Below, one piece after another: positions 5,605 through 56,409 of a DNA stretch of 64,000 nucleotides. The position numbers were made by a program, and so were the translations under genes. The DNA lies in IMG/VR virus record IMGVR_UViG_3300015263_000944, positions 171,395 to 235,394 of that record. One strand, given 5' to 3'. The DNA comes from a virus. Position 1 is the stretch's first letter; each line of letters opens with the position of its first letter. The notes under the pieces are model-generated. The model was not told the origin of the DNA. It did no database searches and saw only the letters and a list, made by a program, of their open reading frames with translations.

Positions 5605-7788
<2,184 letters not shown>

Positions 7789-28959: not shown

Positions 28960-29391
28960 TCAGATTTCAATGGTGGACTTGAAGGTGTTTGTTTCGGGAT
29001 CAAATTTGAGAGTTGTGATCAATTCCCAGTGCGGGTCGGCCTTCGGGACGTACTCTTTTTGTGTGTAGAACATGGCTTCTATGACGAATTCGTACTCTTT
29101 TGCCGCCACTTCGTCATCTGACATGCCCGCCAGAAGATCCTCGCACATCTCCCGACAAATCCGGTAGCAATCCGGCATCCGGGCGCAATGGATCTTGTTC
29201 ATAACCATCGAAGCCTGAAACGCCTTGTCAATCTTCAGCAGATTGATGATGTCTCGCTTCTCAGGGCCATCGCCGAAAATAGCGACGGCAGAGAACTTCG
29301 CCATCACCTGCCCAGCTTTCGGGCCGTGCTTGCGGGTGTCGAAGAAATAGTCGTGAAAATTGCTGTCGTCGATGATGACTTCTTCTGTCAC
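28960..29391 (-). CDS. Hypothetical protein
   Basis: ORF track. Confidence 0.4.
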   Translation of the reverse strand: MTEEVIIDDSNFHDYFFDTRKHGPKAGQVMAKFSAVAIFGDGPEKRDIINLLKIDKAFQASMVMNKIHCARMPDCYRICREMCEDLLAGMSDDEVAAKEYEFVIEAMFYTQKEYVPKADPHWELITTLKFDPETNTFKSTIEI

Positions 29392-32270
29392 AGATCCTCC
29401 AGAATGTCGAAGCCTTCTTCGAAGGTCAGGTCCGTCAGGATCGACTCATCGGGCTTCTCAGGCTTGGGTATCGTCTTCATTACTCTGATGCGATAATCCT
29501 CATCTTTCGGCGGCAGTGTGTTCCGCTTATGCTTCGGAACGCTGTCGAAGGTGAAAGTGTTATATCCACCAGATGGGGGCCTCATGCGAACTTTCAGCAG
29601 AGCACCCTTCTTCAATTCGTCCTGCCATCTGGTGTAGTCGTCTGACCAGATATTCATCTTGGCCTGCCGACTATTCGCATCCTCAAATTCAACAGAGTAA
29701 AAAACGACACCATTCTTGCTGGTTCTTTTCCGAACCGACAAGATCTTCACTTCGATGGGCGCAGGGGCGTCACCATCTTTGTCGCATTCTTCAAGGAAGT
29801 AGTCGATGGTGCGACCAGTGAAATCTGGACTCGATTCCAATTCATGATTCCATTGGAAACCATAGTATTGAGACTCGGCCATCGGATATGTCCGCTGGTC
29901 AAAGACCATCATGTAGTCATTCAGCACGGCTACTTCTTCTTCGTCCAACTTCACCGACGCCGCATTGAACCCATCCATCGTGATCGGATTCTCATCATCG
30001 TCCTTCTCATTCTCCTCGAATCGACGCACGCTGGTTGCTCGTTTGTTCGACAAATCGCTGAGCATCTTCGCCACAGAAACCTGTCGCACTCGATCCTCAC
30101 CCTTGTACTTGTAGGGCACGTCACGGACGATATGTTCAAAGCGTTCTTCCCAGAGCTTCTCAGCCTCTTCAGTGAAGCGAGCCATCTTATCGAAGTCGGG
30201 ATCGCTCTCAGTGATCTCAGTGAGAAGCAACTCACGCAATTCTTCATCCTTCTTGACCATCGAGCCTTCGAAGCGTTGTTGACGCTGCCGACGCTTGGTG
30301 ATTTTGTCTTTGAAGAACTCATGGAACTTCCGCAAATGTTCTCTGTCATAGTGCGGCTCCAGTTCGTCGAACACGCCCAGAGCGATGAGGGCTTTGAGCG
30401 GCGCACCATCCGTTCCAAATTTTGTAAGGAAGTCCGGGAAGTCCTTGTACGGCTGATTCTCCACGATGCGATCAGCCACCGCTTCCCCGATGCCCTTGAT
30501 GTTCTTGAATCCGAAGTAGACCTTCCCATCAGCGATGTTGAAGTTCATCTTCGACTTGTTGATGTTCACCGGACAAACCTCAATGCTATGTTTCTTGGCA
30601 TCCAGTTTGTACTCACGGAACTTCTCGTGATCCTTCTCACACATCAGCGTGGCTGCATAGAACTCCAGAGGATAATGCGCCTTCAAATACAGCAGTCGTG
30701 ACGAGATGTAGGTGTAAGCACAAGCATGGGACCGGTTGAACCCGTATTCGGCGAATGACTCAATTTGATCCCAGAGATCACTGACGAACTCCAGATTCGC
30801 CCCGAGGTTCTTCTGGCCGTTCGTCAAGAACATCTCTTTGTACTTGGCGAACTGAGACACCTTCTTCTTTGAGATGGCTTTACGCACTTTCTCAGTGTGC
30901 ATGTCAGGAATGTTCCCGACGATACGCAAGATGTCCATGACTTGTTCTTGGTACACAAGAACGCCGTAGGTCTTGCCGAGACTTTGTTCCATGATCGGAT
31001 GGATGTTATATGGCTCGCCGCCCTCACGGTCGCCATCACGCCACTTCTTGCGTTTGCAGTAGCGGGCGTCCATCCCCATGTTCAACGGGCCGGGACGATA
31101 GAGAGCCGAATAGGCCACCAGATCTTCGAAGCTGGTCACACCACCACGCTTCACCAGCTTGCGAATACCTTCGCCGTCAAACTGGAAGATACATCGCAGG
31201 TCGGCTTTGTTAGCCATCTCAATCGCAGCAGGATCATTGAGATAAGAGATGTCAGACCAATCGGTGTCCCCCTCTCTGGCACAGATGGATGTAAGACCAT
31301 ATCGCTTCTTCACGAGTTCTGCCGCCAGAGCGATCTGCATGAGGTTGTTGATGACCAGAAGGTCGAACTTGATCAAGCCCACCGGCCCAAGGTCTTGATG
31401 GGCGAGGCCCTCAGACCATGCCGAGCAGATTACACCGTTGGGATGCTGCTTGTTGACCTTCCGCACTTCGAGCGGCACGAAACCATCGATTCGCTTACTG
31501 GAGATAATCAGACCTCCAGCATGGACGCCAGAGTGAGTGTTGCGGCCCTGAAAGAGTTTTGCCGCTTCGGCGATCTCTGGGTTCTCTTCGCAGTAGAGGG
31601 CAAACTTCACATATGCGGTGTCGGCAGGGACGCTGCCTTTGGCTTTCCGAAGTTCAGAGAACTTCTGAACCCAATCCACATCGCCGGTCTCCAACTCCTT
31701 CTTAATCTCATCCTGCTCTTCTTTGGTGGCGATCTGGAAGGTGGCGATTTCAAAGATCTTGTCCCACTCCAGCGGCTTGCCGTCGTCATCCTTATCTTCA
31801 AGCATCGACGTGATGCCTTGAATCTCATGAATGTCAGCCCCATGCACACGGGCCATATCCAAGATGGATGACTTGATGCCCGCCGTTCCGTAGGTGCCGA
31901 TCTCACAAACCTTCTCTTGGCCGTAGGCTTGAGCCGCCCACTGCTCTTTGAGGTAGTCTCGCACCGGCTTCAAGAAGTCGATGTCGATATCGGGGAACTC
32001 GCCCTGAATCCAAGTGTTGGGCCGCTCGATGTCGAACTGTCCTGTGAGATCCAACAGGTAGTCGATGAGGTTGTTGTGTTCGTTCTCTGGGAAGATTAAG
32101 TTTTCCGCCCGAAACTTATCGTGAAGGCCAAGAAGGTACTCATGCTCAGCCTGAGCATCGATTTCCTTAAGCTCTGACTTCAGCCGTTCCTTGTACCTGA
32201 CATCCTGCATCAAGCCTCGCTTCTCCATAGATGCAAGGCACAAGCGGATTAGCTTGTCTCGTTCCTTCAT
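29388..32270 (-). CDS. dnaE: DNA polymerase III alpha (DnaE-type) polymerase core, C-terminal fragment of a split gene
   Basis: EFPDIDIDF catalytic motif about 100 aa from start; GLIKFDLLVINNLMQIALAAELV (GLLKMDFLGL-like); length 960 aa matches the palm/thumb/fingers/OB region. Confidence 0.85.
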   Translation of the reverse strand: MKERDKLIRLCLASMEKRGLMQDVRYKERLKSELKEIDAQAEHEYLLGLHDKFRAENLIFPENEHNNLIDYLLDLTGQFDIERPNTWIQGEFPDIDIDFLKPVRDYLKEQWAAQAYGQEKVCEIGTYGTAGIKSSILDMARVHGADIHEIQGITSMLEDKDDDGKPLEWDKIFEIATFQIATKEEQDEIKKELETGDVDWVQKFSELRKAKGSVPADTAYVKFALYCEENPEIAEAAKLFQGRNTHSGVHAGGLIISSKRIDGFVPLEVRKVNKQHPNGVICSAWSEGLAHQDLGPVGLIKFDLLVINNLMQIALAAELVKKRYGLTSICAREGDTDWSDISYLNDPAAIEMANKADLRCIFQFDGEGIRKLVKRGGVTSFEDLVAYSALYRPGPLNMGMDARYCKRKKWRDGDREGGEPYNIHPIMEQSLGKTYGVLVYQEQVMDILRIVGNIPDMHTEKVRKAISKKKVSQFAKYKEMFLTNGQKNLGANLEFVSDLWDQIESFAEYGFNRSHACAYTYISSRLLYLKAHYPLEFYAATLMCEKDHEKFREYKLDAKKHSIEVCPVNINKSKMNFNIADGKVYFGFKNIKGIGEAVADRIVENQPYKDFPDFLTKFGTDGAPLKALIALGVFDELEPHYDREHLRKFHEFFKDKITKRRQRQQRFEGSMVKKDEELRELLLTEITESDPDFDKMARFTEEAEKLWEERFEHIVRDVPYKYKGEDRVRQVSVAKMLSDLSNKRATSVRRFEENEKDDDENPITMDGFNAASVKLDEEEVAVLNDYMMVFDQRTYPMAESQYYGFQWNHELESSPDFTGRTIDYFLEECDKDGDAPAPIEVKILSVRKRTSKNGVVFYSVEFEDANSRQAKMNIWSDDYTRWQDELKKGALLKVRMRPPSGGYNTFTFDSVPKHKRNTLPPKDEDYRIRVMKTIPKPEKPDESILTDLTFEEGFDILEDL

Positions 32271-32283
32271 GGTTCGACCTTCC

Positions 32284-33312
32284 CTAGTCGTAATAGTCTG
32301 GCGGTACTTCTGGTTTACCGAAGCCTATGTTCCCTTCAAAGTCTTTGTCTTGGACGGGTTCCTTCATTTTCTGAAGGGTCTTGATGGCTTCATCGTATTC
32401 GTCGCCAATGATCACCACTGCCACAAAGAGTTCTTTAAGGTGGGCCAGCGACATCTCGTCAGTATCCTTTACCCACTGATTTAAGTCAATGTCGAGTTTG
32501 GAGATGTTCTCTTCGCCAATGAGGTGCTTAAAGTAAATCTCTCGTGATTCCGCAGTTGGGAAGCCGATGCGGAATCGTTTGTCGAATCGACTGGGCCGAT
32601 TCATGATGCGAGGTTGAAGAGCGTGCGGATAGTTGGTGGTCGCCAAGAATATCGTTTTGTCAACTTCGTTGGCTCCATCAAGGAGATTTAAGATCTCCGA
32701 TTCATTGTGCATTTCAAGAAGAGCGTCCAAGTCTTCCATCACAACAACGACTGGCGTGTCTGACTGGATTTGCTTCAGTTTGCGATAGCCCTCAACAAAG
32801 AGATATGGCTCTTGGAATTCAAGGACCACGCCGCCACGCTTCACCACATCTTGCATGATGAACTGAACGGTGCTGCTCTTGCCGCTCCCCGGAGGCCCAT
32901 GAAGAATGATGCCTCTCTTGTAGGTGATGCCATATTCCCTGAAGACATTTTCTCTGTCCCAGAACTTCTGTACTTCGCTGATCACACGATCCGACTTTGT
33001 GTCAGGAAACCTTAAGAGACCCTCTGTTTTTACAGGAATCTTTTCGAAGAAGATGCCCACGTTGGGGGCACTCTTAATCTCATAGACTCCCGGCACCAGC
33101 CTGTCCACAGTGCGACTGGATGGGACAAAGATGCGATTGTCCGAAGTGGACCATTGACAGTATGTTTGTTCGATATCTTTTTCTTCTTCATCAACAGAGC
33201 AGTTTCCGTAAGCTGGCATAGCATTCCTCCTTGATTTGGCACGGGGAGCCTTCCCCATCTTGTCTAGGGTTCTCAGAGCCTTCCTGAATCTCTCATCCAA
33301 ACTTTTAGACAC
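32284..33312 (-). CDS. AAA-family ATPase
   Basis: Walker A GPPGSGKS; Walker B VVVMEDLD; SRH-like NRPSRFDKRFRIG. Confidence 0.75.
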   Translation of the reverse strand: MSKSLDERFRKALRTLDKMGKAPRAKSRRNAMPAYGNCSVDEEEKDIEQTYCQWSTSDNRIFVPSSRTVDRLVPGVYEIKSAPNVGIFFEKIPVKTEGLLRFPDTKSDRVISEVQKFWDRENVFREYGITYKRGIILHGPPGSGKSSTVQFIMQDVVKRGGVVLEFQEPYLFVEGYRKLKQIQSDTPVVVVMEDLDALLEMHNESEILNLLDGANEVDKTIFLATTNYPHALQPRIMNRPSRFDKRFRIGFPTAESREIYFKHLIGEENISKLDIDLNQWVKDTDEMSLAHLKELFVAVVIIGDEYDEAIKTLQKMKEPVQDKDFEGNIGFGKPEVPPDYYD

Positions 33313-33375
33313 ACCTGCCTCCGTGCATAGATACCGTAGTATAAGAAACTACGGATTATCCGGCAAGGAGAATAT

Positions 33376-33753
33376 ATGGCCCTAGAATACAAGCTGGAAT
33401 TCAACACACCAAGCGGTGCTGCTGATGATTCCGTGTACATCCATCTGAGAGTTGACCCTGTTTATCGCACCAGAATTGGCAAAGAAGCCTATTCGCTGCT
33501 CGACGCCGCAGACAAACAACCCCTGATTACAGAGCTTTTTGACATCGCTGGCGTCGTGGAAATCTCCACCAAGGCTCACCGAGTCTGGCTGATGAAGTCG
33601 CCTATCTTTTCTTGGCAAGAAGTGTTGCAGCCGGTACTCTTCTTGTTAAGAGACCGATTTGGAGAAACATCGATCTCGCCACTGCCGGGATCTGCTGAAA
33701 TCGATGGCTCTGGATTGCGACTAGACTCGGACACGAATCGGAGAACAATATGA
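33376..33753 (+). CDS. Hypothetical protein, possible Nfu/NifU N-terminal-like domain
   Basis: PLITELFDIAGVVEIS...HRVWLMKSPIFSWQEVLQPVLFLL loosely resembles the Nfu_N pattern (LFxIxGVxxVF...FITVTK..W..L.P.I...I..F). Confidence 0.3.
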   Translation: MALEYKLEFNTPSGAADDSVYIHLRVDPVYRTRIGKEAYSLLDAADKQPLITELFDIAGVVEISTKAHRVWLMKSPIFSWQEVLQPVLFLLRDRFGETSISPLPGSAEIDGSGLRLDSDTNRRTI

Positions 33754-34310
33754 CAGAACTGCTCCCCGGACCTTGGGTTGGACACGAACAGGATTTCGAC
33801 AGAATACGACCCCAGATCCCAGAACAGGGAGATATCATCGAGTTTGGTGTCTTCCAAGGCGGCACCACTCGACAACTGGCAACTTGGGGTCGCCGTGTCT
33901 GGGCACTGGATACCTATGGCGGAATGCCAAGTGAAGACTTCAGTGCCGAACATGGCGATCACGATTTGCCGGGCAAGTTCAACCCGTCAGAAGGCCCATG
34001 GGGCGAAATGAGCGTTTGGAGAATGTTCAAGGATTTCCCAAACATCTGTCCGCTCAAGGGTCGATTTGTAGAGACCCTACCTATCATTCCACCAAGTATC
34101 CAGATTGCCTTTGCTTATATGGATTGTGATCTGTACGAATCATACCATCAGGCTTTCTCGTGGCTGGAGAAGCATCTAATGCCGAAAGCCCACGTTTTGA
34201 TCGATGATTACGGGGCCTGTGCTGGCTGCCGCAAAGCTGTTGACGAATGGTCGGCAGATAAGCCTATCGAATGGATCATCGCCTGCAAGCACTTCATTTG
34301 GAAACAATAA
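33750..34310 (+). CDS. Class I SAM-dependent O-methyltransferase (TylF/MycF-like)
   Basis: IIEFGVFQGGTT (motif I), LDTYGGMP, AYMDCDLYESY, DDYGACAGCRKAVDEW. Confidence 0.7.
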   Translation: MTELLPGPWVGHEQDFDRIRPQIPEQGDIIEFGVFQGGTTRQLATWGRRVWALDTYGGMPSEDFSAEHGDHDLPGKFNPSEGPWGEMSVWRMFKDFPNICPLKGRFVETLPIIPPSIQIAFAYMDCDLYESYHQAFSWLEKHLMPKAHVLIDDYGACAGCRKAVDEWSADKPIEWIIACKHFIWKQ

Positions 34311-35082
34311 CTTGACGAGGCACCTTTCCCTCATCCCACAACGACTGAATGGGAGAGATGATTGATGGCAAAGATGGATCTCCATAGACCCTGAATACTG
34401 TTGGGAAATGCTGAAGATACAACGCCGAGTATTCATCCAGATAGTCCTCGATGGTACAATCTGTCATCAAAAACCCCTCTGAGAACATCCGTTGTCCATT
34501 ATCTTGATGGTGAAGCAGTTCGCCAAAGCGTTTCTTGACTTTCTCTAGCGACCTATAATGGCATATGCCATTGGAAACAGCCGCCCCTTTCGTTTGGACA
34601 ACAATAGTCTGCCTTTTCTTTCCACGCATAATTTTTTTGGAGAAATACATCGGCCCACAAACACTACACAAGTAATCACACCTTTTGTTCTCCAACATCC
34701 TAATCAATTCTGCATCAAATCCATTCAGAGTCGGGATGTAGTCGTCCTCCATCAAGATGTAGTAGTCAAACTGAGAGCCGTACTGATCAAAGATGCGGGA
34801 GTATTGGCCGTATGAGTAGCCCTTGTTTGGAGTGCGGACAACATGAATAGGGACACCTGACTTCAGTTGAGACAGGCTATTCATGAATGAAGTGTATCTC
34901 CCGCTCTCCTTTGGATTCTCGGGCCAACCCACTGTGATTTGATCCAGATTGTGTTGAATCGAATCTAAGCGGGCCAGATGTTCTTCGATGTAGCAACGCC
35001 TTTCATCGAAACCGCATCTGACTCGCTTGCCGCTCCATGTGGCAATCATGTAGTTTGTACGCATATCGTATGTACGATACAA
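34294..35082 (-). CDS. Hypothetical protein (possible glycosyltransferase-like)
   Basis: ORF track; MEDDY acidic motif only. Confidence 0.4.
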   Translation of the reverse strand: MYRTYDMRTNYMIATWSGKRVRCGFDERRCYIEEHLARLDSIQHNLDQITVGWPENPKESGRYTSFMNSLSQLKSGVPIHVVRTPNKGYSYGQYSRIFDQYGSQFDYYILMEDDYIPTLNGFDAELIRMLENKRCDYLCSVCGPMYFSKKIMRGKKRQTIVVQTKGAAVSNGICHYRSLEKVKKRFGELLHHQDNGQRMFSEGFLMTDCTIEDYLDEYSALYLQHFPTVFRVYGDPSLPSIISPIQSLWDEGKVPRQVIVSK

Positions 35083-35100
35083 ATTTTGGACTGGCGCACG

Positions 35101-35139
35101 AAAAAACCCGCTTCCCCTTTGCTGTTGGGGAAGCGGGTT
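35101..35139 (-). terminator. Rho-independent terminator downstream of tmRNA (13-bp stem AACCCGCTTCCCC/GGGGAAGCGGGTT)
   Basis: On the minus strand the stem is followed by UUUUUU (plus 35101-35106 AAAAAA). Confidence 0.6.
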
Positions 35140-35152
35140 CTTCTAACTTGAG

Positions 35153-35532
35153 TGGACCGGACGGGATTCGAACCCGTGTCTTGCTCTGCCGTCAAAGCGG
35201 CGTCTACGATCATGTCTCTCGATTTGAGTTGTCGGCCAGCCGGTCGCTCATGAGAGCACAGCTACCATGCCAGCTTAGTCGATTTGAGTTTCGCCCATCT
35301 CTCCTACGACTCGGAGATTCAGGACTATCCTGATGGCGGTACGTCGCAGACCTATCAGGCATCGGTCATTGACGCTTCGGACGGGCCTAGCCCGTCACTG
35401 CTTACGCAGCCATGCGAAGAGGAGTCGAAGTTTCGACAATTATGGTTTTGAATGACTTTTAACGTGGCCCGTCATTCAACCACGGATCGCAGCCATCTTC
35501 TCAGAACAGCCAATCGATTCCAATTCCAGCCC
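35153..35532 (-). ncRNA. ssrA: tmRNA (ssrA), one-piece, about 380 nt
   Basis: Minus strand: 5' GGGCUGGAAUUGGAAUCGAUUGG (cf. E. coli GGGGCUGAUUCUGGAUUCGACGGG). 3' ...ACGGGUUCGAAUCCCGUCCGGUCCA with T-loop GGUUCGAAUCC. Acceptor stem GGGCUGG/CCGGUCC includes G3-U70 and discriminator A. Putative tag ORF GUC|GAA ACU UCG ACU CCU CUU CGC AUG GCU GCG UAA (ETSTPLRMAA) at 35402-35434, preceded by CAAAACCAUAAUUGUC like E. coli CAAAAAAUAGUC. Confidence 0.7.
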
Positions 35533-35854
35533 AAGTTTTCAAAGATCAAGCCACCAGCCTGCCTTACCTGCACGTTGCCATCGTGTGCTATAGTCAGGGA
35601 GCCCCTGCCGTCATCGCAGTTCTCCCTCCAAGCCGAGGCGACCGGCTTTTCAGGTATGCAGACACCTTCACAGCCTTGCGGCTCCAGCGGGTGACTAAAT
35701 CCAGTTTTGCCTCGGAGAGCACTGCCGAAGGACGGAAACTGGAAACATCCCTTCGATCACGGCTCTTTCCCCGAGGGGCCTGTACGCTAGGCTCTCCCCT
35801 TTCGGGGTCGCTTCGGTCAGGTACTCTACATAGTATGGCACGGCCCGATTTCAG

Positions 35855-36082
35855 TCAAGCCGCTTCCCACATTTTCCTGCACTTGTCGAGCAGTGCGGGG
35901 TCTTTCGGAATTGCCTTGCGGATCTTCCCTTCTGTCTTGGCCTTCTCCATCGGGCAAGGATCGGTGTCCTTGTGGCGTCGGGGATTCCGGCACTCGCAAT
36001 GGCATCGAAACTTGCACCGAGGCGGCTCCTCAAAGAGTTGCCAATCGACCACGAAGACAGGTAGCATTTTGCATGTCAACAT
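35855..36082 (-). CDS. Small Cys-rich hypothetical protein (75 aa)
   Basis: Strong RBS GGAGGTG 6 nt before ATG; CKFRCHCECRNPRRHKDTDPC. Confidence 0.4.
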   Translation of the reverse strand: MLTCKMLPVFVVDWQLFEEPPRCKFRCHCECRNPRRHKDTDPCPMEKAKTEGKIRKAIPKDPALLDKCRKMWEAA

Positions 36083-36145
36083 GATGCACCTCCGTTTGTG
36101 CGAGTTTCTTAATCATCTGTAATATAGCACAAACGAAAGAAAAAG

Positions 36146-36460
36146 TCAGTCCCACTTGGCAACCATCTCTTCTAAGGTTTCCGGCTTCAAAAAGCGGTCG
36201 CCCATACGGTCACGAAGACGAGGAGATGCAGAAGAGTCCTCTGCACTGATCATGAAGTTGAGCGGCACCAGCGAGAAATCGTCTGGCGTGAGTTTGCGGC
36301 CCAAACGATTCTCCAGACAGCCAATGCACAAGAAGTGTGCGAAACCGGCGTGCATGGCGGAAACCCATACATGGTGTTCGACCATGTACCATTCGCCAAT
36401 GCCACCATCACGAGAACATGTTTCTACCCGACAATCGTGACATCGTGAATCAGGATACAT
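36146..36460 (-). CDS. Hypothetical protein
   Basis: ORF track. Confidence 0.35.
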   Translation of the reverse strand: MYPDSRCHDCRVETCSRDGGIGEWYMVEHHVWVSAMHAGFAHFLCIGCLENRLGRKLTPDDFSLVPLNFMISAEDSSASPRLRDRMGDRFLKPETLEEMVAKWD

Positions 36461-36683
36461 GACGCATCCTTACTACGAGCAGGAAACAAAGCCAAGCGAT
36501 CCCTGCCAGCGAATGCGGGTATCCAACATTAGCCAAAACGATTCCGGGAGTCACGAGAGCCATGGCGATAAAAAATCTCATCGGCTCCTGAGTCCTGTCG
36601 TAACTTCTGTTCAGCTTCGAGAACACGGGGATCATCCTCATCAACGAGCAGGTGCCATCCCACCCACAATGCAAAACATACAA
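36450..36683 (-). CDS. Small membrane protein (two predicted TM helices)
   Basis: Hydrophobic segments FIAMALVTPGIVLANV and LAGIAWLCFLLVV; overlapping alternative ORF 36529-36777 is also hydrophobic. Confidence 0.3.
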   Translation of the reverse strand: MYVLHCGWDGTCSLMRMIPVFSKLNRSYDRTQEPMRFFIAMALVTPGIVLANVGYPHSLAGIAWLCFLLVVRMRHVS

Positions 36684-36710
36684 CTCCGCTAATGATCAAC
36701 CAAGCAATCG

Positions 36711-37382
36711 TCAGGGGTAGAAACGAAGCGTTTCCCAACATGACCAAGCACACCATGACGGCCTCCGAGCCCACCAAGCGGCGGATCTTTCACACCAGCT
36801 TTTCTTCTCCGAATCTCTAAGAACCACATGGTATTGTTTGCCTAGCTGGTGATGGCAAACCCTGAGCAAACCATGCAGGTCTCCCGGCGAGATGGTACGG
36901 TTTGGGGCCGAAAAATCTCTTCGCCCTGTCGCTTCAATAGCAGCGGCGCACATCTCAGAGCAATGTGTACCATTTGTCTGCACATTCCGCAAGTAGCCCC
37001 GGACGGAGTACCGGCGTCCCACTTGAGTCTCCAGAAACTCTTTCATTTTGGAGACTTCTGCATCCGAATATGGCCTGTTCGGCGTGACCACTGTGACCAA
37101 AGCTGGGCTCTGTGGATGTGACGTGTTGTAGTCACCCATGGCCGTCAGCCATTCCTCAATGGTGTATCTCTTCACAACAGGCGGCTCGGCTTCATAGACC
37201 CATGTTTTGTCACCATATTTGACGACGACAGCAACATGGCTGAATGACGACTTCGTGTAACACTCGACGAGGTTGTGGCTGTTCTGGACGAACAGCATGT
37301 CGCCGCTGTGCAGGTTGTCTGAAAAGGCATGAACAGGTGCAGCGAAAAGAAGAATCGCTGCGATGACTTGTAGGAATCGCAT
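36711..37382 (-). CDS. Secreted permuted papain-fold (NlpC/P60 superfamily, YiiX/C92-like) putative amidase
   Basis: Signal peptide MRFLQVIAAILLFAAPVHA; SHVAVVVKYGDKTWVYEAEP and HCSEMCAAAIEATG resemble the YiiX-family His...Cys permuted catalytic motifs. Confidence 0.5.
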   Translation of the reverse strand: MRFLQVIAAILLFAAPVHAFSDNLHSGDMLFVQNSHNLVECYTKSSFSHVAVVVKYGDKTWVYEAEPPVVKRYTIEEWLTAMGDYNTSHPQSPALVTVVTPNRPYSDAEVSKMKEFLETQVGRRYSVRGYLRNVQTNGTHCSEMCAAAIEATGRRDFSAPNRTISPGDLHGLLRVCHHQLGKQYHVVLRDSEKKSWCERSAAWWARRPSWCAWSCWETLRFYP

Positions 37383-37446
37383 CGCTACCTCCGTGAATAA
37401 GTATGCACGAAACGATTATTGCAAAATTTGGAACAGAAACCAAGAG

Positions 37447-38106
37447 TCATTTCTGAATGACTGCCTCGATACTGTACTCCCCGACAGGATGTTGATCGGG
37501 GGCCACGAGATGATTGTAGCCCTCATCAATCACTCGAAAGTCCACGATGTTCGCATTGGGGATCGCTTCCAAAATAACTCTTTTGAGACTCTTGGTGCAT
37601 GGCGGCTCATCTGTCTCGGGCAGCCAGAAATACTTGTGATCTGGGTTCCATTGGCTCGGGAGCATCTTTCGCTTCTCATATAGGTCTCTATGGGGGATCG
37701 AAATAATCAGGTGCCCACCCGGCTTGACCAACTCAAACCAACGTGCCAACGCCTTCTCTGGGAACTTCATGTGTTCCAAAACGTGACTGGCATAAACTGT
37801 CCAGTATGTGTCGTTTGGAAAATCATACATGAATTGTGCGTCACCGTCACCAAATGCCATATCGAAACGACGAAATGTCTTGTTCACCGGATCTTGCGAG
37901 CAACCAATGTCCAACCCGAGCTTGTCTTCGGGACAATACTTCTCATACCAACCTTCTCTCAAACGTCTCTCCCGAGCACGACTGGTTTCTCCGTTAAAAA
38001 AATTTGCCATATAATCTCCTATCGCTGGCGAAAACTTGTGTTCCCATTCTTCCAAATTCTCGTCATCTGGGATGTGCCCTCCCATGTGAACGGCTTTGAA
38101 TGTCAT
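37447..38106 (-). CDS. Class I SAM-dependent methyltransferase
   Basis: LDIGCSQDP (motif I), LVKPGGHLIISIP; start at MTFKAV after GGAGG. Confidence 0.65.
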   Translation of the reverse strand: MTFKAVHMGGHIPDDENLEEWEHKFSPAIGDYMANFFNGETSRARERRLREGWYEKYCPEDKLGLDIGCSQDPVNKTFRRFDMAFGDGDAQFMYDFPNDTYWTVYASHVLEHMKFPEKALARWFELVKPGGHLIISIPHRDLYEKRKMLPSQWNPDHKYFWLPETDEPPCTKSLKRVILEAIPNANIVDFRVIDEGYNHLVAPDQHPVGEYSIEAVIQK

Positions 38107-38182
38107 GACGCCTCCTTTCTTTAATAACAGAGTCTCGCCGCCAAATTTCCCTTCCAAAGTCTAAATATGGTGGAGGTGTGAT

Positions 38183-38356
38183 ATGCCACTACAACGAGAT
38201 CACGAAAACAAAATGATTCTTGGCGTCTGTGCAGGACTTGCCAAAGAAATGAACATCGATCCCACAGTCATGCGGTTGATTTTCGCCGTTGCAACTTTGA
38301 TGGGTTTTGGATTGCCGATTTTGATCTACATCATTCTGGCAATCGTCATGAAATAA
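38183..38356 (+). CDS. PspC-domain small membrane protein (57 aa)
   Basis: Hand-translated: MPLQRDHENKMILGVCAGLAKEMNIDPTVMRLIFAVATLMGFGLPILIYIILAIVMK matches the PspC domain (R.I.GVC.GLA.y..iDp.lvRl.f). GGAGG RBS. Below the ORF-track cutoff. Confidence 0.55.
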   Translation: MPLQRDHENKMILGVCAGLAKEMNIDPTVMRLIFAVATLMGFGLPILIYIILAIVMK

Positions 38357-38365
38357 GGAGAAACC

Positions 38366-39112
38366 ATGGGACTATTCCAAGAATACATGGATGCCAAAGG
38401 ACAGGTGAAGAAGCCTGTCGTTGACATTCATGGAGGCAAACCGACGCCAGCAACACCGCCGACCAAACCGCCCAAAGAACACGGAAACGCTCCGTACATC
38501 GCCAAAGGCGAAAAAGGCGGAAAGAAAGGGTTCGGCGATCTCGGCGACACAAAGTGTAAGTGTGATGGCAAGGAACCCGCTCCAGCCAAGATTCCAACAG
38601 CCGAACATGCCGAAATTGCAGCGTTGGTTACAGACGTGATGCTGAAAGATGGTGCTCTGGTCGAACAACTGGTCTACCAGTTGAAGAACAAGGGCCTACT
38701 GGGCGTTGTGGTCGCAGAGATGTTGACCTACAAGGAGACGTACCAGCATCTCACAGAAATCATGGCTCACGAATCATATGGTCCCAAGGTTTGCGGCAAG
38801 CTCATTCGTGCCATGAACGAAGAAGTTGCCCCACCACTCAGTGCCAGCCTTGAAGGCGAAGACATTGAGGATGACGCAGACGAAGCCGAGGAAGGCGATG
38901 AATTCGACAATGAATTCTCGGGCGACATGGAAGGCATCGATGATGAAGACATTGACATGCAAGACGCCGACTTCGAGATGGACCCAGCCCAAGCGGCTGA
39001 TCCCTTGATGATGGACCCGACCATGCAACAACAAGCTCCGGGCCAAGCTCCAATGGCCCCGCCACACGGTCAAGCAATGATGCACCTTCAACGTGCAATG
39101 ATGAGACGCTAA
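38366..39112 (+). CDS. Acidic hypothetical protein with CTS-like N-terminus variant (MGLFQEYMDAK) and D/E-rich C-terminal half
   Basis: GGAG RBS; N-terminus resembles T4 MKTYQEFIAE; Lys/Pro-rich then D/E-rich low complexity. Confidence 0.5.
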   Translation: MGLFQEYMDAKGQVKKPVVDIHGGKPTPATPPTKPPKEHGNAPYIAKGEKGGKKGFGDLGDTKCKCDGKEPAPAKIPTAEHAEIAALVTDVMLKDGALVEQLVYQLKNKGLLGVVVAEMLTYKETYQHLTEIMAHESYGPKVCGKLIRAMNEEVAPPLSASLEGEDIEDDADEAEEGDEFDNEFSGDMEGIDDEDIDMQDADFEMDPAQAADPLMMDPTMQQQAPGQAPMAPPHGQAMMHLQRAMMRR

Positions 39113-39333
39113 TGAATTTCAAACAATGGTTCGAAGAGACTGAAGCAGAAGAACATGCAAAGCGTAAGATGCTTGGCGCAAAGCGTTATGCTGCCAATAG
39201 TCGTTCGGATCATCTGGGACGCCCCAAAGGTGCGACTGTGGGAGGGAACCCACGGTACAGGGGAGGCAAAGGTTGGTGGACCAACGTAGGCCCAACCAGA
39301 ACACAGGACAAACGAGATGAACGAGAAGAGTGA
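39112..39333 (+). CDS. Small basic protein with CTS-like N-terminus (MNFKQWFEETE)
   Basis: TAATG start/stop overlap with upstream gene; family motif. Confidence 0.5.
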   Translation: MNFKQWFEETEAEEHAKRKMLGAKRYAANSRSDHLGRPKGATVGGNPRYRGGKGWWTNVGPTRTQDKRDEREE

Positions 39334-39544
39334 CGCACGCCCAGCCACAAAAGATCTTCTCGACAGTATTCGTGGCGTCTTCAAACACTATAGCAAATCA
39401 GCGAGAAGAAAATCGTGGGACGCCCTGATGTCACCGGGTGGCAAGTCCGTCGTCAACAAGTTGATCACCGACCCGAGGGCACCAGTTGTTGGCATCCCAC
39501 GATTGCTCCGTTTCAAAGAATGGATCGAATCACTCGATCAGTGA
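39317..39544 (+). CDS. Hypothetical protein; C-terminus contains the family motif (LLRFKEWIESLDQ)
   Basis: ORF track. Confidence 0.4.
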   Translation: MNEKSDARPATKDLLDSIRGVFKHYSKSARRKSWDALMSPGGKSVVNKLITDPRAPVVGIPRLLRFKEWIESLDQ

Positions 39545-39946
39545 ATCAATCTTCTTCAGATCCTCTTCTGTGAAGTACATCTTGGCACCTAACTTCTTGG
39601 TTGGTCCCGGCAGAAATCCTTCGATGACGTACTTCCTCAAATCGTCATATCTGACATTCAACCAGCGAGCGGCTTCGGCCAGACTGTAAAGCTTGTCTCG
39701 CAAAATGATTCGTCGAGGGACTGGCTTCAATCTCTTTCGGATGGCACACTCTTTACATCTGAAACCACGACTGAAAGCATTCCAACAAGTCATGTTGGTT
39801 TTTCCGCAACCTTTGCAACGATACTTCAACCGTTGCTTGCAACCTCGATACTCTTCTGACAGAAGTTCGCAGTTGGCCTTACGGAAACCCTCTCGGATAT
39901 CGTCAATCGTAAGCTTCGGTCTTCTAACTCTCTTCTCCTTGGGCAT
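39530..39946 (-). CDS. Zinc-ribbon plus MerR/Xis-like HTH DNA-binding protein
   Basis: CKGCGKT...CKEC Cys pairs; C-terminal LYSLAEAARWLNVRYDDLRKYVIEG HTH-like. Confidence 0.45.
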   Translation of the reverse strand: MPKEKRVRRPKLTIDDIREGFRKANCELLSEEYRGCKQRLKYRCKGCGKTNMTCWNAFSRGFRCKECAIRKRLKPVPRRIILRDKLYSLAEAARWLNVRYDDLRKYVIEGFLPGPTKKLGAKMYFTEEDLKKIDSLIE

Positions 39947-40271
39947 GTGATCTGTCCTTGTCAAACACGCCATCTGGATACCGGGCACTCAGCTTCTCGA
40001 CATTTGCATCGATCACCTCTTGAAGTGAACTGCCAATGGTTCGGGCAGCAAATGCCAGATACCACATGCAATCACCCAGTTCCTTGACAGCGACTTCCTT
40101 TTTCAGTTCTTGACCGTGAAACACGACCTTCTTCATATGGTCGGCAAATTCCCCGGCCTCTCCAGCCAAGCCCAGCCCTCCGAGACACAATTGCATTTTC
40201 GGTGTCTCTGTCGATTGAGGTGAGGCCAGTTTCAGCACGAATTCTTCGTATTCGGGTAGTGTCTTCGACAT
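39924..40271 (-). CDS. mazG: MazG-like nucleotide pyrophosphohydrolase
   Basis: LGGLGLAGEAGEFADHMKK and EVAVKELGDCMWYLAFAA match the MazG EExxE/ELGDxLWY motifs. Confidence 0.7.
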   Translation of the reverse strand: MSKTLPEYEEFVLKLASPQSTETPKMQLCLGGLGLAGEAGEFADHMKKVVFHGQELKKEVAVKELGDCMWYLAFAARTIGSSLQEVIDANVEKLSARYPDGVFDKDRSHAQGEES

Positions 40272-40282
40272 CCTTGTCTCCT

Positions 40283-40549
40283 TCAGTACAAAAGTTGTAA
40301 CGCATCAATGAAAACACGCAGAGCGAGGCACAGTATTCCTGTAGCAGCCACCACGACCATCCAGTCAATGATGGTCCACTGATGCCACCTCAAAGATGCT
40401 CGCAGCCCGGTGGCTTCGGCATCGGAGGCGGCGGCAACCGTTTCTCGATCTCTTCCAGTTTTTGAAGTATCTTGATTTGGTTCTTCAAAATCTGGCTGAT
40501 TTGATCGGCGATCAATGTGGGGAAATTCATGGTTGGAACCATTTTCCAT
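40283..40549 (-). CDS. Membrane hypothetical protein
   Basis: C-terminal TM WTIIDWMVVVAATGILCLALRVFI. Confidence 0.35.
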   Translation of the reverse strand: MENGSNHEFPHIDRRSNQPDFEEPNQDTSKTGRDRETVAAASDAEATGLRASLRWHQWTIIDWMVVVAATGILCLALRVFIDALQLLY

Positions 40550-41006
40550 TGAACAAAATCTTGGGGCCTCCCAAGTCTCCTTCGAGCCAGACAGTTTCTA
40601 CTCCTGACTCAGCAAGCATCGTGAATGCGTGTTCGATGGATTCCTTCCAGTGATCCGGCGTTCCATCGAGCATCTTCTTGTGTCCAACCACCTGCCGGAT
40701 GCCAACACTGATGATGGCCCGAGCACAATCCGAACAAGCGAACCACGGAACATACATGGTCGAACCCGGAAGTGGCAGTTGAAGCTTGGCAGCCTTGAAG
40801 ATGGCGTTGCGTTCGGCGTGCTCAATGAAGTTGTACTTCAATGGCCGCTGCAAACGATCATCTGTGACTTTCACTCGATCTGGGAAGCGATTACAGTCTT
40901 CTGCTGTTCCCGCCGAAGTGACAACCACGGCTCCGTTCTGGGTTGATGGGTCAGGGCTTTTCGTAGCAGCCTTGTACGCCATCAACATGTATTGCTGAGG
41001 TGTCAT
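40527..41006 (-). CDS. CDA-fold zinc deaminase (dCMP deaminase-like), second paralog
   Basis: HAERNAI ... PWFACSDCARAI. Confidence 0.7.
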   Translation of the reverse strand: MTPQQYMLMAYKAATKSPDPSTQNGAVVVTSAGTAEDCNRFPDRVKVTDDRLQRPLKYNFIEHAERNAIFKAAKLQLPLPGSTMYVPWFACSDCARAIISVGIRQVVGHKKMLDGTPDHWKESIEHAFTMLAESGVETVWLEGDLGGPKILFNGKWFQP

Positions 41007-41023
41007 CCTTGACTCCTGATGGG

Positions 41024-42433
41024 TTAAGCTGCATCCGCATGTGGGATCGGCTGCAAGCTGTGTCGAATCTTCATCTGCTTACCGCCACGAGCCGGGCTCA
41101 AGAAACGACTGAATCTCAAGTCGTTGATGATTGGCTCCACATCATGCAATCGCAGGCAGTAAGCCACCAGTGAACCGCAAGCCGAACCACGGCCCGGACC
41201 CACGGCTTCTGAGCCATCGCCGAACCCAACAATGCTGGGGCCGACATGGCGAGCTTCATCTGTCATCTGTTTCTGAATCAGGAAGTAGCTGGAGAAGCCC
41301 TTCTCACAGATCAGGTCGTACTCTTCCCGGATGCGGGATGAGTATTCCTTGGTGGCTGGACAACCTCGGGCCTTGAAGCCTCGCAGGGTCTCTTGCCATA
41401 GAAGGTCATCGGCATCTGGAATCTTCGGGAGCTTGATGTCCCTGTCGATCTCAACGCCCTTTGCTTTCTCACAGATGGCGATGGTGTTTGCTTTGGCTTG
41501 TTTGAAGATCTCGTAGTCGATGATGTCTTTGTACTTCAACTCCCACATGGCGTTGAGTTCGTCTTCTGACTTCAGCCACAGATTGGTGTCCTGAAGCTCA
41601 AAGAGATCATCGGCTTGACCGGAATCGATCATGGCCTGCACTTCTTGAATCGTGCGTTTGTTTTGCTGCATCAGCATGAGTCGCTGATTGTGACTGTGCT
41701 CTTTCTTGATCATCGGGAGACCGTACTTCTCGTGTGCCCGAATGAGGAAGGCGTTGTACGGCCCCTGCATCTTCCAGTCGAGCATCATCATTTCAAGGTA
41801 GAAGTTGTCTCGACCGAGCATGTCGATGTAGTATTCCAACATTTGGAATCCCGCCTCATCGCCGCCCTCAAAGAAGGCTGTGGCTATTTCGCTGATGCCA
41901 CAACCACTGGTGAAAATGATGCCTTCCTTGTGTTCTCGGAGAGCATCATGGTTGATTCGAGGGCGATAGTAGTATCCGTGAATCCACGCCCACGACGACA
42001 ACCGAACGAGGTTTTGGTAGCCGATGTTGTTATAGGCAATAGCGAGCAGATGACATGATTTGCGGAAGATCTTCTGCTCTGGTGTTTGGGCTTTCGTCTC
42101 GGCATTGGGATCGCCAAGACTCTTGTAGAACTCAGCCGTATCAGAACGAGTGTTGGATTTGGGCTGCATCCGATTGACATACAACTCGCAACCGAACAGC
42201 GGGTACAAGTTGTGCTTCTCTGCTTGTTCGATCTGCTGGGGAACTGCGCCCATAACCCCGTGATCGGTAATGCAGAGATACTTCTGGTTGATCTCCTTCA
42301 TCCGCTGGGCATACTCCCACACCATGGCAAAGCCATCGAGAAGAGAGAAATCCGAGTGTCGGTGAAGATGCTCAAAGCCCATAATCGGATGGTGCATTAC
42401 TCGTCGCCTTCCTTGGTTCCGTTTTGTTGCCAC
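41024..42433 (-). CDS. dnaE: DNA polymerase III alpha (DnaE-type) N-terminal fragment: PHP domain through start of palm
   Basis: HLHRHSDFSLLDG PHP motif; ends GPGRGSACGSLVAYCLRLHDVEPIINDLRFSRFLSPAR (E. coli [36 protein letters not shown]), then about 20 extra aa and a stop. Confidence 0.85.
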   Translation of the reverse strand: MATKRNQGRRRVMHHPIMGFEHLHRHSDFSLLDGFAMVWEYAQRMKEINQKYLCITDHGVMGAVPQQIEQAEKHNLYPLFGCELYVNRMQPKSNTRSDTAEFYKSLGDPNAETKAQTPEQKIFRKSCHLLAIAYNNIGYQNLVRLSSWAWIHGYYYRPRINHDALREHKEGIIFTSGCGISEIATAFFEGGDEAGFQMLEYYIDMLGRDNFYLEMMMLDWKMQGPYNAFLIRAHEKYGLPMIKKEHSHNQRLMLMQQNKRTIQEVQAMIDSGQADDLFELQDTNLWLKSEDELNAMWELKYKDIIDYEIFKQAKANTIAICEKAKGVEIDRDIKLPKIPDADDLLWQETLRGFKARGCPATKEYSSRIREEYDLICEKGFSSYFLIQKQMTDEARHVGPSIVGFGDGSEAVGPGRGSACGSLVAYCLRLHDVEPIINDLRFSRFLSPARGGKQMKIRHSLQPIPHADAA

Positions 42434-44724: not shown

Positions 44725-45045
44725 TTAGTCTCCCATGATCAGCGATCCGAGATCATCGTCGATGCCAGCAGGCTTGACGTATCCGGTCGCTTCGAGTTTC
44801 TTTTGTGTTCGATAGGCATTCCGAAGACTCATACAACAATCTTCGGCACGATCCCATCCTGCCGTCTTCCAGACATCTTTGAGTGGGCCGACGTTCTGCC
44901 AGCCCTTCTCTGTGAGGTATTCAGCCATCACTTTCTCTTCGGCCTGACGAGCCTCTCGCTTCTTTTCCTTTTGCTTCTCTCGACGGCGGGTCTTAGAAGC
45001 AGGTTCGTTGGCTCGCTTGGCACGTTGCTTTTTGGTTAGTGTCAT
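44725..45045 (-). CDS. Basic hypothetical protein
   Basis: ORF track; K/R-rich N-terminus. Confidence 0.4.
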   Translation of the reverse strand: MTLTKKQRAKRANEPASKTRRREKQKEKKREARQAEEKVMAEYLTEKGWQNVGPLKDVWKTAGWDRAEDCCMSLRNAYRTQKKLEATGYVKPAGIDDDLGSLIMGD

Positions 45046-46643
45046 TTCAGGAAATCCTTCTCATATTGTTCTCTGGACATGATGTGGACATCACTATCCA
45101 TGTTCGGACCATCGCAGACCAAGACGTATTCTTCCCCGTCAAGGTTCTGAGATCCCAGAACAACCACATTCTGCCAGATCATGTGAATTGAAGTGAGAAC
45201 CTCTGTGGCGTACTTGTGGTACAGCGGTCGTCCATCAGCGTAGTGCTGCATGAAGAACCAGCCTTTGCCCAAGTGGTTCGGGTCGGTCAACCTGATGTCA
45301 GGCAAACCGCCATTACAGTAGCGTTGGAGCATCTGTTTCTTGACTTCCTTGAAATCACGAGACGTGATCTTCCACTCGCCCGTTGACATGCGGCGGTAGG
45401 TGTAATACTGCATCTTCTCGGCGAACTCTGGAGTGAAGAATTCGTTGATCAAGGTGTAGTCGTTGTAATACTTCCTGACTTCGAAGACCTTCTCCATGCC
45501 GAGCCCAAGTTTCTTATCCCACTTGGCCTTCTCCCGCATGTTGGTGCATTCTTCCCATTCCTTGCCGAACTTGCCCTTGTTCCATCGATCTTCGATGTCC
45601 AAGAGAAGCTCGAAGCCCAGCTTGTATGGGTTCTGACTCCACTGACCTCCCAAGACTCGCATCTTGTGTTCGGCATAGTGCCAGATACCAGCCGCTTCAT
45701 CGTCCTGTCCGAGTGAGGCAAGGCCCTCCCGACAGAGTAGGTGGTAATCGACGAAACTGGCCCAACCTTCATTGATCATCTTCGTTTGTCGCTGAGGTTG
45801 GAAGTACATGGACTCATCATAGAGCATCGAGATGATGTCTTGCTGCCACGGCTTGAGTGGAGCATTATTCTTCAAGAATCCCATGATGTCTCGATCAGCA
45901 CGACCGAACAGGCCAAGGAATTCCGAAGCTTCTTTCTTCTCAATTCTCTCGTGTTCCTTCTCGATGTACGAGTCGGGGTTGACCCATTCGTCCATGTAGT
46001 CATGAGTGGATTTCAAACGTCTGGGAAAATGGTATTTTCTTTCATCCCTGACATTCTTGTTTTCAATCTTCTTTCGCTTCCATGCCTTCTGAGGATCAAT
46101 GAGCGTTTCGATTCGCATCACATGGTCGATGAACTCTGTGACACGCTCGCCGCCCCAACGCTTCATGTACTGACGAATTCGAGTGCTGTGATTCGCCAGC
46201 TTGTTCATCATGTTTTCGTCAGTCGGCCCAAAGAAAATGTTGTTCTTGAAGAAGTCGTTGTGGCCGATGGCGTGACAGATAACGTCCACGTTGTCTACCA
46301 ACGTGTTCGAGTCCATGCAGTAGATGTAACATGGATTGGTGTTGATCACCATTTCCGAGATACGGTACTGGTTGTATTCGTAACCACGACTCATTTCCTC
46401 ATATTCCATTCCCCACTTCCAGTGTGGGTATCGGACAGGGAAACCGCCGTAGCTGGCAAGCTCAGCCATTTCGTCGTAGCGGACAAATTCAACGATGATG
46501 GGATAGTAGTCCAACCCCATATCCCTGCAAGCCTTCTCCATCTGAGGAAGCAGTTCCTCCACTTCCTTGTGGATCTTCAGACCGGGAATGTTGTTGTCAC
46601 CAACCAGAATTGGTGTCCCGCTCATCATGTTAGATTTTGACAT
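45042..46643 (-). CDS. SpoVR-family protein
   Basis: Full-length similarity pattern to SpoVR/YcgB (about 530 aa; HWKWGMEYEEMSRGYEYNQYRI, CHAIGHNDFFKNN). Confidence 0.85.
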   Translation of the reverse strand: MSKSNMMSGTPILVGDNNIPGLKIHKEVEELLPQMEKACRDMGLDYYPIIVEFVRYDEMAELASYGGFPVRYPHWKWGMEYEEMSRGYEYNQYRISEMVINTNPCYIYCMDSNTLVDNVDVICHAIGHNDFFKNNIFFGPTDENMMNKLANHSTRIRQYMKRWGGERVTEFIDHVMRIETLIDPQKAWKRKKIENKNVRDERKYHFPRRLKSTHDYMDEWVNPDSYIEKEHERIEKKEASEFLGLFGRADRDIMGFLKNNAPLKPWQQDIISMLYDESMYFQPQRQTKMINEGWASFVDYHLLCREGLASLGQDDEAAGIWHYAEHKMRVLGGQWSQNPYKLGFELLLDIEDRWNKGKFGKEWEECTNMREKAKWDKKLGLGMEKVFEVRKYYNDYTLINEFFTPEFAEKMQYYTYRRMSTGEWKITSRDFKEVKKQMLQRYCNGGLPDIRLTDPNHLGKGWFFMQHYADGRPLYHKYATEVLTSIHMIWQNVVVLGSQNLDGEEYVLVCDGPNMDSDVHIMSREQYEKDFLK

Positions 46644-49714: not shown

Positions 49715-49794
49715 GATGCTCCCCTTGTGTAAGAAAAGAGGGCGATAGCGGTAGAGTAACGATCAACCACCACTACCGCCCCCAACGTCCGTCA

Positions 49795-56191: not shown

Positions 56192-56409
56192 CAGTCAGTT
56201 CCTCTTCTGAAGATCAAGCTTGCCACCCATCCCAGAATCATGCCAACCAGCAATGACAGAGGCGCAGCAAGATACAACCACACAACAACATATGCCCCGC
56301 CAATTGACGGGTCTTGTTCTGCGGCAGCCCCGCCAGCATTTTGCAGCCATATCCAAGAGCCAAGCAGGCCCAACAGACCACCGCAAACAACAAACAGAAA
56401 CTCTCTCAT
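56191..56409 (-). CDS. Small membrane protein
   Basis: Two hydrophobic segments. Confidence 0.35.
   Translation of the reverse strand: MREFLFVVCGGLLGLLGSWIWLQNAGGAAAEQDPSIGGAYVVVWLYLAAPLSLLVGMILGWVASLIFRRGTD

Follow-up and report, generated by a model that had tools for sequence, protein, structure and literature searches.

The 64,000-nucleotide stretch of viral DNA analysed here (positions 171,395 to 235,394 of IMG/VR record IMGVR_UViG_3300015263_000944), which we call the window, derives from a very large phage genome in which the gene for a DnaE-type DNA polymerase III (Pol III) alpha subunit is divided in two. Polymerases of this C-family copy the chromosomes of bacteria, and their catalytic subunit is usually regarded as a single chain. 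We propose, with a probability of about three in four, that the two open reading frames (ORFs) of the window, at 41024-42433(-) and 29388-32270(-), encode two subunits of one DnaE-type (C-family) replicative polymerase, which would be translated separately and assemble non-covalently to form a composite active site. The features that make the arrangement noteworthy are the site of the cut, which lies inside the palm, the age and spread of the split, and an overlap at the cut that has decayed reciprocally on its two sides.

The two proteins and the overlap at the cut

The initial annotation had placed an N-terminal fragment (hereafter N) and a C-terminal fragment (C) at these two positions, with a content, strand and N-to-C order that Pfam searches and alignments confirm; the gap between them (32271-41023) is 8,753 bp long, with a transfer-messenger RNA (tmRNA) and, over the two strands, at least 12 ORFs. 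N is a frame of 469 codons counted from a GTG at 42433 and comprises a domain of the PHP (polymerase and histidinol phosphatase) type and the initial portion of the palm, as far as RFLSPAR. Its true start is probably the ATG at 42397, giving 457 amino acids (aa), because the homologues begin MxHPIxGFEHLH, and exactly this 457-aa product is on record on two JGI contigs. The PHP domain, a putative proofreading exonuclease (approximately 41564-42370(-), ORF aa 22-290), is recognized by Pfam PF02811 at E 4e-38, and is followed by positions 8-98 of the 260 of the DNA_pol3_alpha profile. Residues 3-411 of Mycobacterium tuberculosis DnaE1 align with N, and the homology stops at ...LRFSRFLSPAR. The metal-ligand positions of the PHP domain are invariant or nearly so across the clade and, if M. 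tuberculosis DnaE1 is a guide, the N subunit probably has a proofreading role as well. The N-sub-domain of the palm (41087-41416(-), ORF aa 340-449) consists of three helices, the GPGRGS loop, a further helix and the segment ending in RFLSPAR, with helices modelled by AlphaFold at 341-355, 362-378, 381-402 and 416-426. GPGRGS itself (41183-41200(-), aa 412-417), the Gly-Ser (G-S) nucleotide-binding motif of a Pol-beta-like palm, is invariant in 52 of 52 aligned N homologues. After RFLSPAR, N ends in a conserved tail of 20 aa, GGKQMKIRHSLQPIPHADAA (41027-41086(-)).

The second protein, C (960 aa), begins with a vestigial head and continues through a catalytic strand, the thumb, the rest of the palm, the fingers, a helix-hairpin-helix (HhH) domain and an OB fold. 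Pfam finds in it positions 100-259 of DNA_pol3_alpha, the finger domain and HHH_6, and the two ORFs meet at profile position 98/100. Approximately residues 315-895 of Escherichia coli alpha align with C, and its PDIDIDF (31974-31994(-), aa 93-99) falls on the PDFDVDF strand with the two catalytic aspartates. The third catalytic aspartate lies in KFD (31362-31370(-), aa 301-303), which is aligned to the E. coli KFD, whose aspartate is D555. P93, D94, D96, D98, K301 and D303 are invariant in 54 C homologues, as are the finger motifs. Downstream of these lie the finger domain (30807-31334(-), aa 313-488; PF17657, E 8e-37), the HhH DNA-binding domain (30351-30584(-), aa 563-640; PF14579, E 1e-17) and a C-terminal OB-fold-like beta barrel (29547-29762(-), approximately aa 837-908), the last placed by its AlphaFold strands and by Foldseek hits on the OB folds of SSB and RPA and on full-length alpha. 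With the model of the whole of C as query, the top Foldseek matches are Pol III alpha structures (best 7pu7, E 5e-28) over 940-990 alignment columns. All the parts that define a DnaE-type C-family polymerase are present, namely the PHP domain, a G-S palm with three aspartates, the fingers, the HhH domain and the OB fold; the motifs are spread over two polypeptides, and in place of the family's single-polypeptide catalytic subunit there are two ORFs. The thumb of C also contains an insertion of ~45-50 aa, ATFQIATKEEQDEIKKELETGDVDW... (~31590-31745, C aa 176-226), which is modelled as helices and occurs in only ~10% of C homologues.

In the head of C (32001-32270(-), aa 1-90) the palm N-sub-domain recurs in diverged form. 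When aligned to intact DnaEs, these 90 aa and the final 100 aa of N fall in register on one and the same stretch, namely residues 336-433 of the 1179-aa protein of phage LR756511.1 and, in E. coli alpha, residues 315-400. A direct BLASTP comparison of the two fragments returned nothing significant and family profiles were needed: hhalign places the head profile in register on the N-end profile with a local E of 1.2e-5 (81% probability, 45 columns) and a global E of 9.5e-5 (87 columns). The isolated head touches a sole Pfam model, DNA_pol3_alpha, at positions 2-47, and its AlphaFold helices (2-17, 24-40, 43-56 and 68-72) follow the same helix-helix-helix-loop-helix pattern as N. At the place of the canonical GPGRGSxxGS it carries FPENEHNN (FPxNExN across the clade), and R29, E33, Q40, Y45 and N66 are invariant across the clade. 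The initial annotation had noticed the likeness of the two segments and read it as a duplicated linker that may help the halves to reassociate. The duplication across the break holds, as the profile-profile alignment and the matching helix patterns of the two AlphaFold models indicate, and the head is a duplicate of the end of N. Its length is 90 aa, not the ~100 first given, and what has been duplicated is a whole sub-domain rather than a linker; that it may help the halves to reassociate is plausible.

The tail of N shows the opposite decay. Its pattern, GGKQMKxRH..P, has a conservation of 0.6-0.9 over 111 homologues and, being conserved, is not read-through junk. In sequence it looks like a Gly-Gly hinge followed by a vestigial beta-2 strand, in which QMKIRH would replace DIDIDF and the aspartates are gone; in our own reading of the sequences, the alternating hydrophobics M454, I456 and H458 match those of the canonical D-F-D-V-D-F strand, and Q, K and R stand where that strand has its aspartates. 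Both the tail of N and the head of C are as conserved as the catalytic domains. The module of helices, G-S loop and strand thus appears to be present twice with complementary decay, the copy in N keeping the G-S motif and the copy in C keeping DIDIDF.

Conservation and origin of the split

The split is genuine and conserved over a large clade. We surveyed the best 120 database relatives of each half, drawn from JGI, ENA, Logan and NCBI assemblies, and the recurrence of the split in all four sources shows that it is not an assembly artefact. The best 120 relatives of N (57-98% identity) are all N-only proteins of ~450-480 aa, five of them longer and only through inteins, and the best 120 relatives of C (53-100% identity) all lack PHP and have ~890-980 aa, 25 of them being longer with insertions at known intein sites. 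An intact gene is found in the more distant group of LR756511.1; this 595-kb uncultured phage is the nearest GenBank relative of the window, and the GenBank phage collection that we searched yielded no member of the split clade. Contigs of 18 sizes, from 17 kb to 693 kb, occur in the match lists of both N and C, and the sizes common to the two lists suggest, indirectly, that both halves lie on the same contigs. An independent Logan assembly of essentially the same phage has an identical gene order and the same ~8.75-kb gap. Among 79 metagenomic loci with the 3' end of N, 56 extend at least 1.5 kb downstream and none of these 56 has C within 1.5 kb; in 26 loci C is on the same strand and begins at a distance of 1.9-9.0 kb downstream of N (median 6.1 kb), and in four further loci the AAA gene that precedes C was seen 5.9-9.8 kb downstream of N. 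The order PrkA, DUF444, SpoVR, ClpP, N, variable block, AAA, C is kept in the relatives and persists over sequences that are only 50-70% identical. The split is, by these measures, ancient and widespread.

One carrier of a split N-fragment (56% identity), the 546-kb CALFYV010000090.1 (our locus L101), is binned in the GTDB genome set as an 'uncultured Bacteriovoracaceae' metagenome-assembled genome. The contig probably belongs to a huge phage and was assigned to a bacterial bin in error, and as evidence of the host it is not reliable.

The same cut is also in use far beyond this clade. In a wide search of 1.8 billion representative proteins we considered the best 150 matches to the N part, 141 of which cover it nearly completely; of these 141, 100 run on as intact DnaE and 37 stop no more than 40 aa beyond RFLxxxR. 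Several of the N-only proteins are just 27-42% identical to N of the window, and their tails include RGGKLMKLEV, RGGNLLKVTMQ and R....CTFEV. One distant lineage (L010, 28% identity) has the same cut and a similar tail, with N and C 1 kb apart and a C that starts with a copy of the sub-domain lacking the G-S motif. Another (L014, 7026-10908) has an N-only fragment with the same cut, directly followed by dnaN (beta clamp) and dnaB, with no C within 10 kb downstream. The same cut therefore recurs in distant phage lineages. Streptomyces phage Nanodon had been considered as a split case and was rejected, its gene being intact.

Among intact genes, the nearest ones (LR756511.1, P0252 and others), which are 46-51% identical to N, show the order AAA, one or two small ORFs and dnaE, with the canonical junction RFLSKFRKDYPDVDVDF, and in the split genomes the order is N, the variable block, AAA (with or without a small ORF) and C. 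A tandem duplication of the upstream block together with the 5' part of dnaE, followed by reciprocal loss, would give both the observed order and the overlap. We infer that a partial duplication of dnaE with subsequent reciprocal loss is the most economical origin.

A composite active site and the alternatives to it

In Pol III alpha and other Pol-beta-like nucleotidyltransferases, the G-S loop binds the incoming nucleotide triphosphate (NTP) and three aspartates bind the metals. We propose that the PHP domain comes from the N subunit, along with the first half of the Pol-beta-like palm and its nucleotide-binding loop GPGRGS, and that the C subunit supplies PDIDIDF, KFD, the thumb, the fingers, the HhH domain and the OB fold. 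Because the G-S motif and the aspartates, all of them invariant, sit on different polypeptides, an active enzyme would require the heterodimer, and the composite active site would exist in it only. Separate translation is indicated by a Shine-Dalgarno-like GGGAAGG of C's own (32278-32284(-), read directly from the sequence), which lies 7 nt upstream of the ATG of C and argues for independent initiation; the stop codon of the AAA gene overlaps this ribosome-binding site. In the single-chain AlphaFold models the predicted local distance difference test (pLDDT) score is below 50 for the tail of N (444-459) and, in C, for the catalytic strand (88-98) and the palm strands (263-304), with 246-252 of low confidence too, which would fit, as weak evidence, a palm that is completed in trans. 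Both vestiges would have been kept as docking elements. In one possible arrangement, a reciprocal swap, the tail of N would pair with the head of C and the G-S loop of N would lie over the aspartates of C, and the pairing of tail with head would form a dead pseudo-site in which the conserved Q453, K455 and R457 face N63, E64 and N66.

A more far-reaching version of this proposal, which we regard as possible and rather doubtful, joins two ideas: that the enzyme is a pseudo-symmetric, reciprocally swapped heterodimer, and that the cut is a recurrent and evolutionarily reversible fission point of the C-family. One hybrid module of the heterodimer would be active and the other would be a dead latch, in which FPxNExN of the C head is clasped by QMKIRH of the N tail, with charge-reversed residues in place of the contacts mediated by metal and nucleotide. 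Phage lineages would then have split independently at this cut, and the LR756511.1 group may have fused back.

Several points weigh against the two-subunit proposal or parts of it. Low pLDDT in a single-chain model is in general weak evidence for a missing partner, and the docking of the vestiges and the composite site, like physical assembly and activity, are what we infer from the data above. N and C lie in different transcription units, because genes on the opposite strand intervene, so that stoichiometric expression is not guaranteed; a scan for promoters and terminators gave 10 promoter-like sites where 11.4 are expected, one of them at 33366-33338(-), upstream of the AAA gene. In comparison with its homologues, N of the window has lost LTQDCHYC, and with it the conserved D-x-H of the PHP domain, through an in-frame deletion of 24 nt (41707/41708(-), codons 242/243). 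Apart from the eight missing aa the product is 457/457 identical to that of an independent assembly (P0001), and it is the sole carrier of the gap among 111 homologues; judged from its sequence, the PHP domain of the window genome may be impaired at least in its exonuclease function, and the deletion may reflect either a dead exonuclease in this copy or a consensus error of the contig. Finally, a neighbour-joining tree of the N part nests the intact relatives among the split ones, which is not as a single intact-to-split event predicts: the split genes are monophyletic in 0 of 100 bootstraps and parsimony makes the ancestor split in 99 of 100. The C-part tree favours neither outcome, with 40 versus 49 of 100. 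It should be noted that neighbour-joining with simple distances is a crude guide to the direction of fission versus re-fusion.

Of the alternatives, the one that survives best, and that we still consider unlikely, is that the two halves work apart. N would act independently as a PHP exonuclease or phosphoesterase and carry an orphan remnant of the palm, C would be either a self-sufficient polymerase, its palm completed by its own head, or a non-catalytic DNA-binding factor, and no composite site would form. The head of C does have the helix pattern of the canonical sub-domain and is modelled confidently in cis (pLDDT 75-91), actinophages keep PHP and polymerase as two genes, and N and C are not co-transcribed. 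However, the head lacks the GPGRGS motif, which the copy in N has kept invariant after long divergence, and relatives carry inteins inside the G-S motif of N, an insertion site that suggests that this motif is functionally important. A C that works alone is also at odds with its poorly modelled palm and catalytic strands in the absence of a partner, and an N that works alone with a tail that is conserved and yet disordered in isolation, and the order and strand of N and C are kept everywhere.

A second alternative, which we hold to be very improbable, is that the halves are rejoined, whether by an atypical split intein (a short N-intein in the tail and a C-intein in the head), by RNA trans-splicing or by site-specific excision of the 8.75-kb insert during infection. 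It draws on the abundance of inteins in this DnaE gene family and on the sizes of the tail (20 aa) and the head (90 aa), since phage metagenomes contain split inteins of an atypical kind whose N-parts measure ~25 aa. The initial annotation had seen no intein signature at the break, and this stands: a search with Hint/intein profiles was empty, with no match of either protein to an intein or Hint family at E<=0.01 and none of the junction peptides at E<=10, and the termini are not of the splice type, the tail beginning with Gly-Gly and the head ending in ...WIQGEF without HN followed by Cys, Ser or Thr. The head, moreover, is homologous to the palm and not to an intein, matching DNA_pol3_alpha only and in register. 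The break lies in the palm, between RFLSPAR and PDIDIDF, and not in the fingers between AEY and CFN, and no Hint halves flank it. The fingers site is uninterrupted in the window (AEYGFNRSH), and 22 relatives have contiguous inteins there. In the relatives inteins occupy three sites other than the split junction, where none is found: between G416 and S417 of N, inside the G-S motif; at aa 436-439 of C; and at aa 514 of C, between AEY and GFN, which is the AEY/xFN site used by the cyanobacterial split intein. The carriers are P0058, P0081, P0085, P0116, P0118 and P0241 for N (with two insertions in P0241) and a subset of P0133-P0236 for C, some of them with LAGLIDADG domains. Against splicing at the RNA level or excision, an Rfam scan of the region matched the tmRNA as its sole hit and no intron, no recombinase was found among 10 ORFs of the insert scanned, and the longest word common to the two junctions is 7 nt versus 8.2 in shuffles. 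The recombinase inside the insert and the terminal repeats of an excisable element of the skin or nifD-element type are thus both missing here, and the insert varies in length from 1.9 to more than 10 kb among relatives and holds conserved genes.

The least probable reading of all, that the pair is a mis-assembly, the result of a recent mobile-element insertion or a pair of dying pseudogenes, could appeal to the 24-nt PHP deletion and is contradicted by more than 100 clusters per half from four data sources with intact frames and invariant catalytic residues, by the independent assembly that reproduces the layout and by the synteny kept over sequences 50-70% identical.

Genomic setting and comparison with known systems

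The 8,753 bp between the halves (32271-41023) encode a dCMP deaminase, MazG, a helix-turn-helix/zinc-finger protein, an acidic protein (+), a methyltransferase, a C92 amidase, the tmRNA, a TylF-like methyltransferase (+), the AAA ATPase and several unknowns, and in the relatives this block differs in content as well as in length. The tmRNA (35150-35532(-)) matches Rfam RF00023 with 88.5 bits, and ARAGORN predicts the tag peptide VETSTPLRMAA; huge phages are known to carry tmRNAs (Al-Shayeb et al., 2020). The AAA gene (32284-33312(-)) is of the classical type, with a Walker A motif GPPGSGKS and a second region of homology. It stands directly upstream of C in split relatives and upstream of dnaE in intact ones (L001, 9223-10209; L015, 16499-17536; L017, 4104-5120), and is a conserved partner that is not specific to the split state. 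Upstream of the polymerase, PrkA, DUF444 and SpoVR (45042-51879(-)) form a bacterial stress module of the yeaG-yeaH-ycgB type, which holds this place in each of the relatives examined, the intact LR756511.1 group among them; ClpP comes next in the split genomes. In relatives, further insertions of ~0.2-1.3 kb interrupt the N gene (after codon 31 and at codon 243), SpoVR (codon 101) and AAA (codon ~145), with coordinates 10069-10291 and 1867-3188 in L002 and 8740-10001 and 14038-15086 in L006. These are probably inteins or introns, and the polymerase neighbourhood seems to be a hot spot for selfish inserts. Elsewhere the window encodes cell-like functions, including DnaJ, a thiamine pyrophosphate-dependent enzyme, an HldE-like kinase/cytidylyltransferase, thymidylate synthase, GlpX fructose-1,6-bisphosphatase and several glycosyltransferases and methyltransferases (among the coordinates of this group are 5957-7114, 13742-15379, 53168-54535, 56406-57272 and 63058-63945).

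If the two-subunit proposal is correct, a large and diverse group of phages, with contigs of up to 693 kb, has apparently long replicated with a palm divided between two proteins. It would provide a natural system in which a Pol-beta-like active site is assembled in trans, from which the minimal sufficient interface might be learned, and it would raise the question of whether separating the half with the PHP domain and NTP-binding loop from the catalytic half allows regulation, for example through control of timing or of stoichiometry. With its reciprocal decay, the overlap looks like a clear case of gene fission by duplication and complementary degeneration, and the arrangement suggests a ready-made design for intein-free split polymerases. 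There is also a practical side, in that annotation pipelines name both halves 'DNA polymerase III alpha' and phylogenies of dnaE could treat them as fragments.

Polymerases divided between genes are familiar from family B, in the two-gene gp43 of some T4-like phages and the two-subunit PolB of Methanothermobacter. There too a catalytic polymerase is made from two separately encoded fragments, although the family and the fold are other than those of the window pair, and we know of no reciprocal vestigial overlap in these enzymes. Within the C-family, cyanobacterial DnaE is split in the fingers at ...AEY/CFN... and is healed by a split intein. That system (Ssp/Npu) likewise has two distant genes on one genome, whereas the cut in the window is without an intein. 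Closer in the latter respect are the two-gene DnaE-like polymerases of actinophages such as Gordonia phage Suzy (gp64/gp65) and Microbacterium phage PhunaPhoke (gp56/gp57), in which no intein was detected or is annotated. Their genes are adjacent, however, and cut at the PHP/palm boundary (318-345 aa plus 767-811 aa), which leaves the whole palm on one chain, and no overlap is reported for them; Jacobs-Sera et al. (2020, PMC7302621) note a comparable two-gene Pol III alpha in phages of Microbacterium cluster EF.

The nearest likeness in the position of the cut is the 'minimal' Pol III alpha of group 2.2 T4-like jumbo phages, in which an NTP-binding N protein and a Mg- and template-binding C protein are encoded by distant genes (Iyer et al., 2021, Viruses 13:63, PMC7824862). 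Going by that paper's description, the topological cut is the same, the genes are distant and no intein is mentioned (PMC7824862). The minimal form consists of the core nucleotidyltransferase and template-binding modules only, without PHP or other domains, and accompanies a family B polymerase (PMC7824862). The window pair also has its cut between the NTP-binding and Mg-binding sub-domains, with GPGRGS and DIDIDF 8.75 kb apart, but it goes beyond the core modules, being full-size with PHP on N and the fingers, HhH domain and OB fold on C, and the paper reports neither overlap nor vestiges. No family B polymerase was seen among the ORFs scanned in the window (64 kb of the genome). Our literature search, which covered open-access papers and bioRxiv, turned up no account of a DnaE that is full-size and PHP-bearing, is cut within the palm and carries reciprocal vestiges.

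The intact DnaEs themselves, including E. coli alpha, M. tuberculosis DnaE1 and the 1179-aa protein of LR756511.1, have the same domains in the same order as the window pair. The last of these is 49% identical to N and 39% to C, and its gene shares with the split genes the neighbours PrkA, DUF444, SpoVR and AAA. What sets the window apart from the single-chain enzyme is that there are two polypeptides, with the cut between the G-S loop and the aspartate strand, that a reciprocally decayed overlap of ~100 aa spans the cut, and that 8.75 kb of DNA lies between the genes for its two sides.

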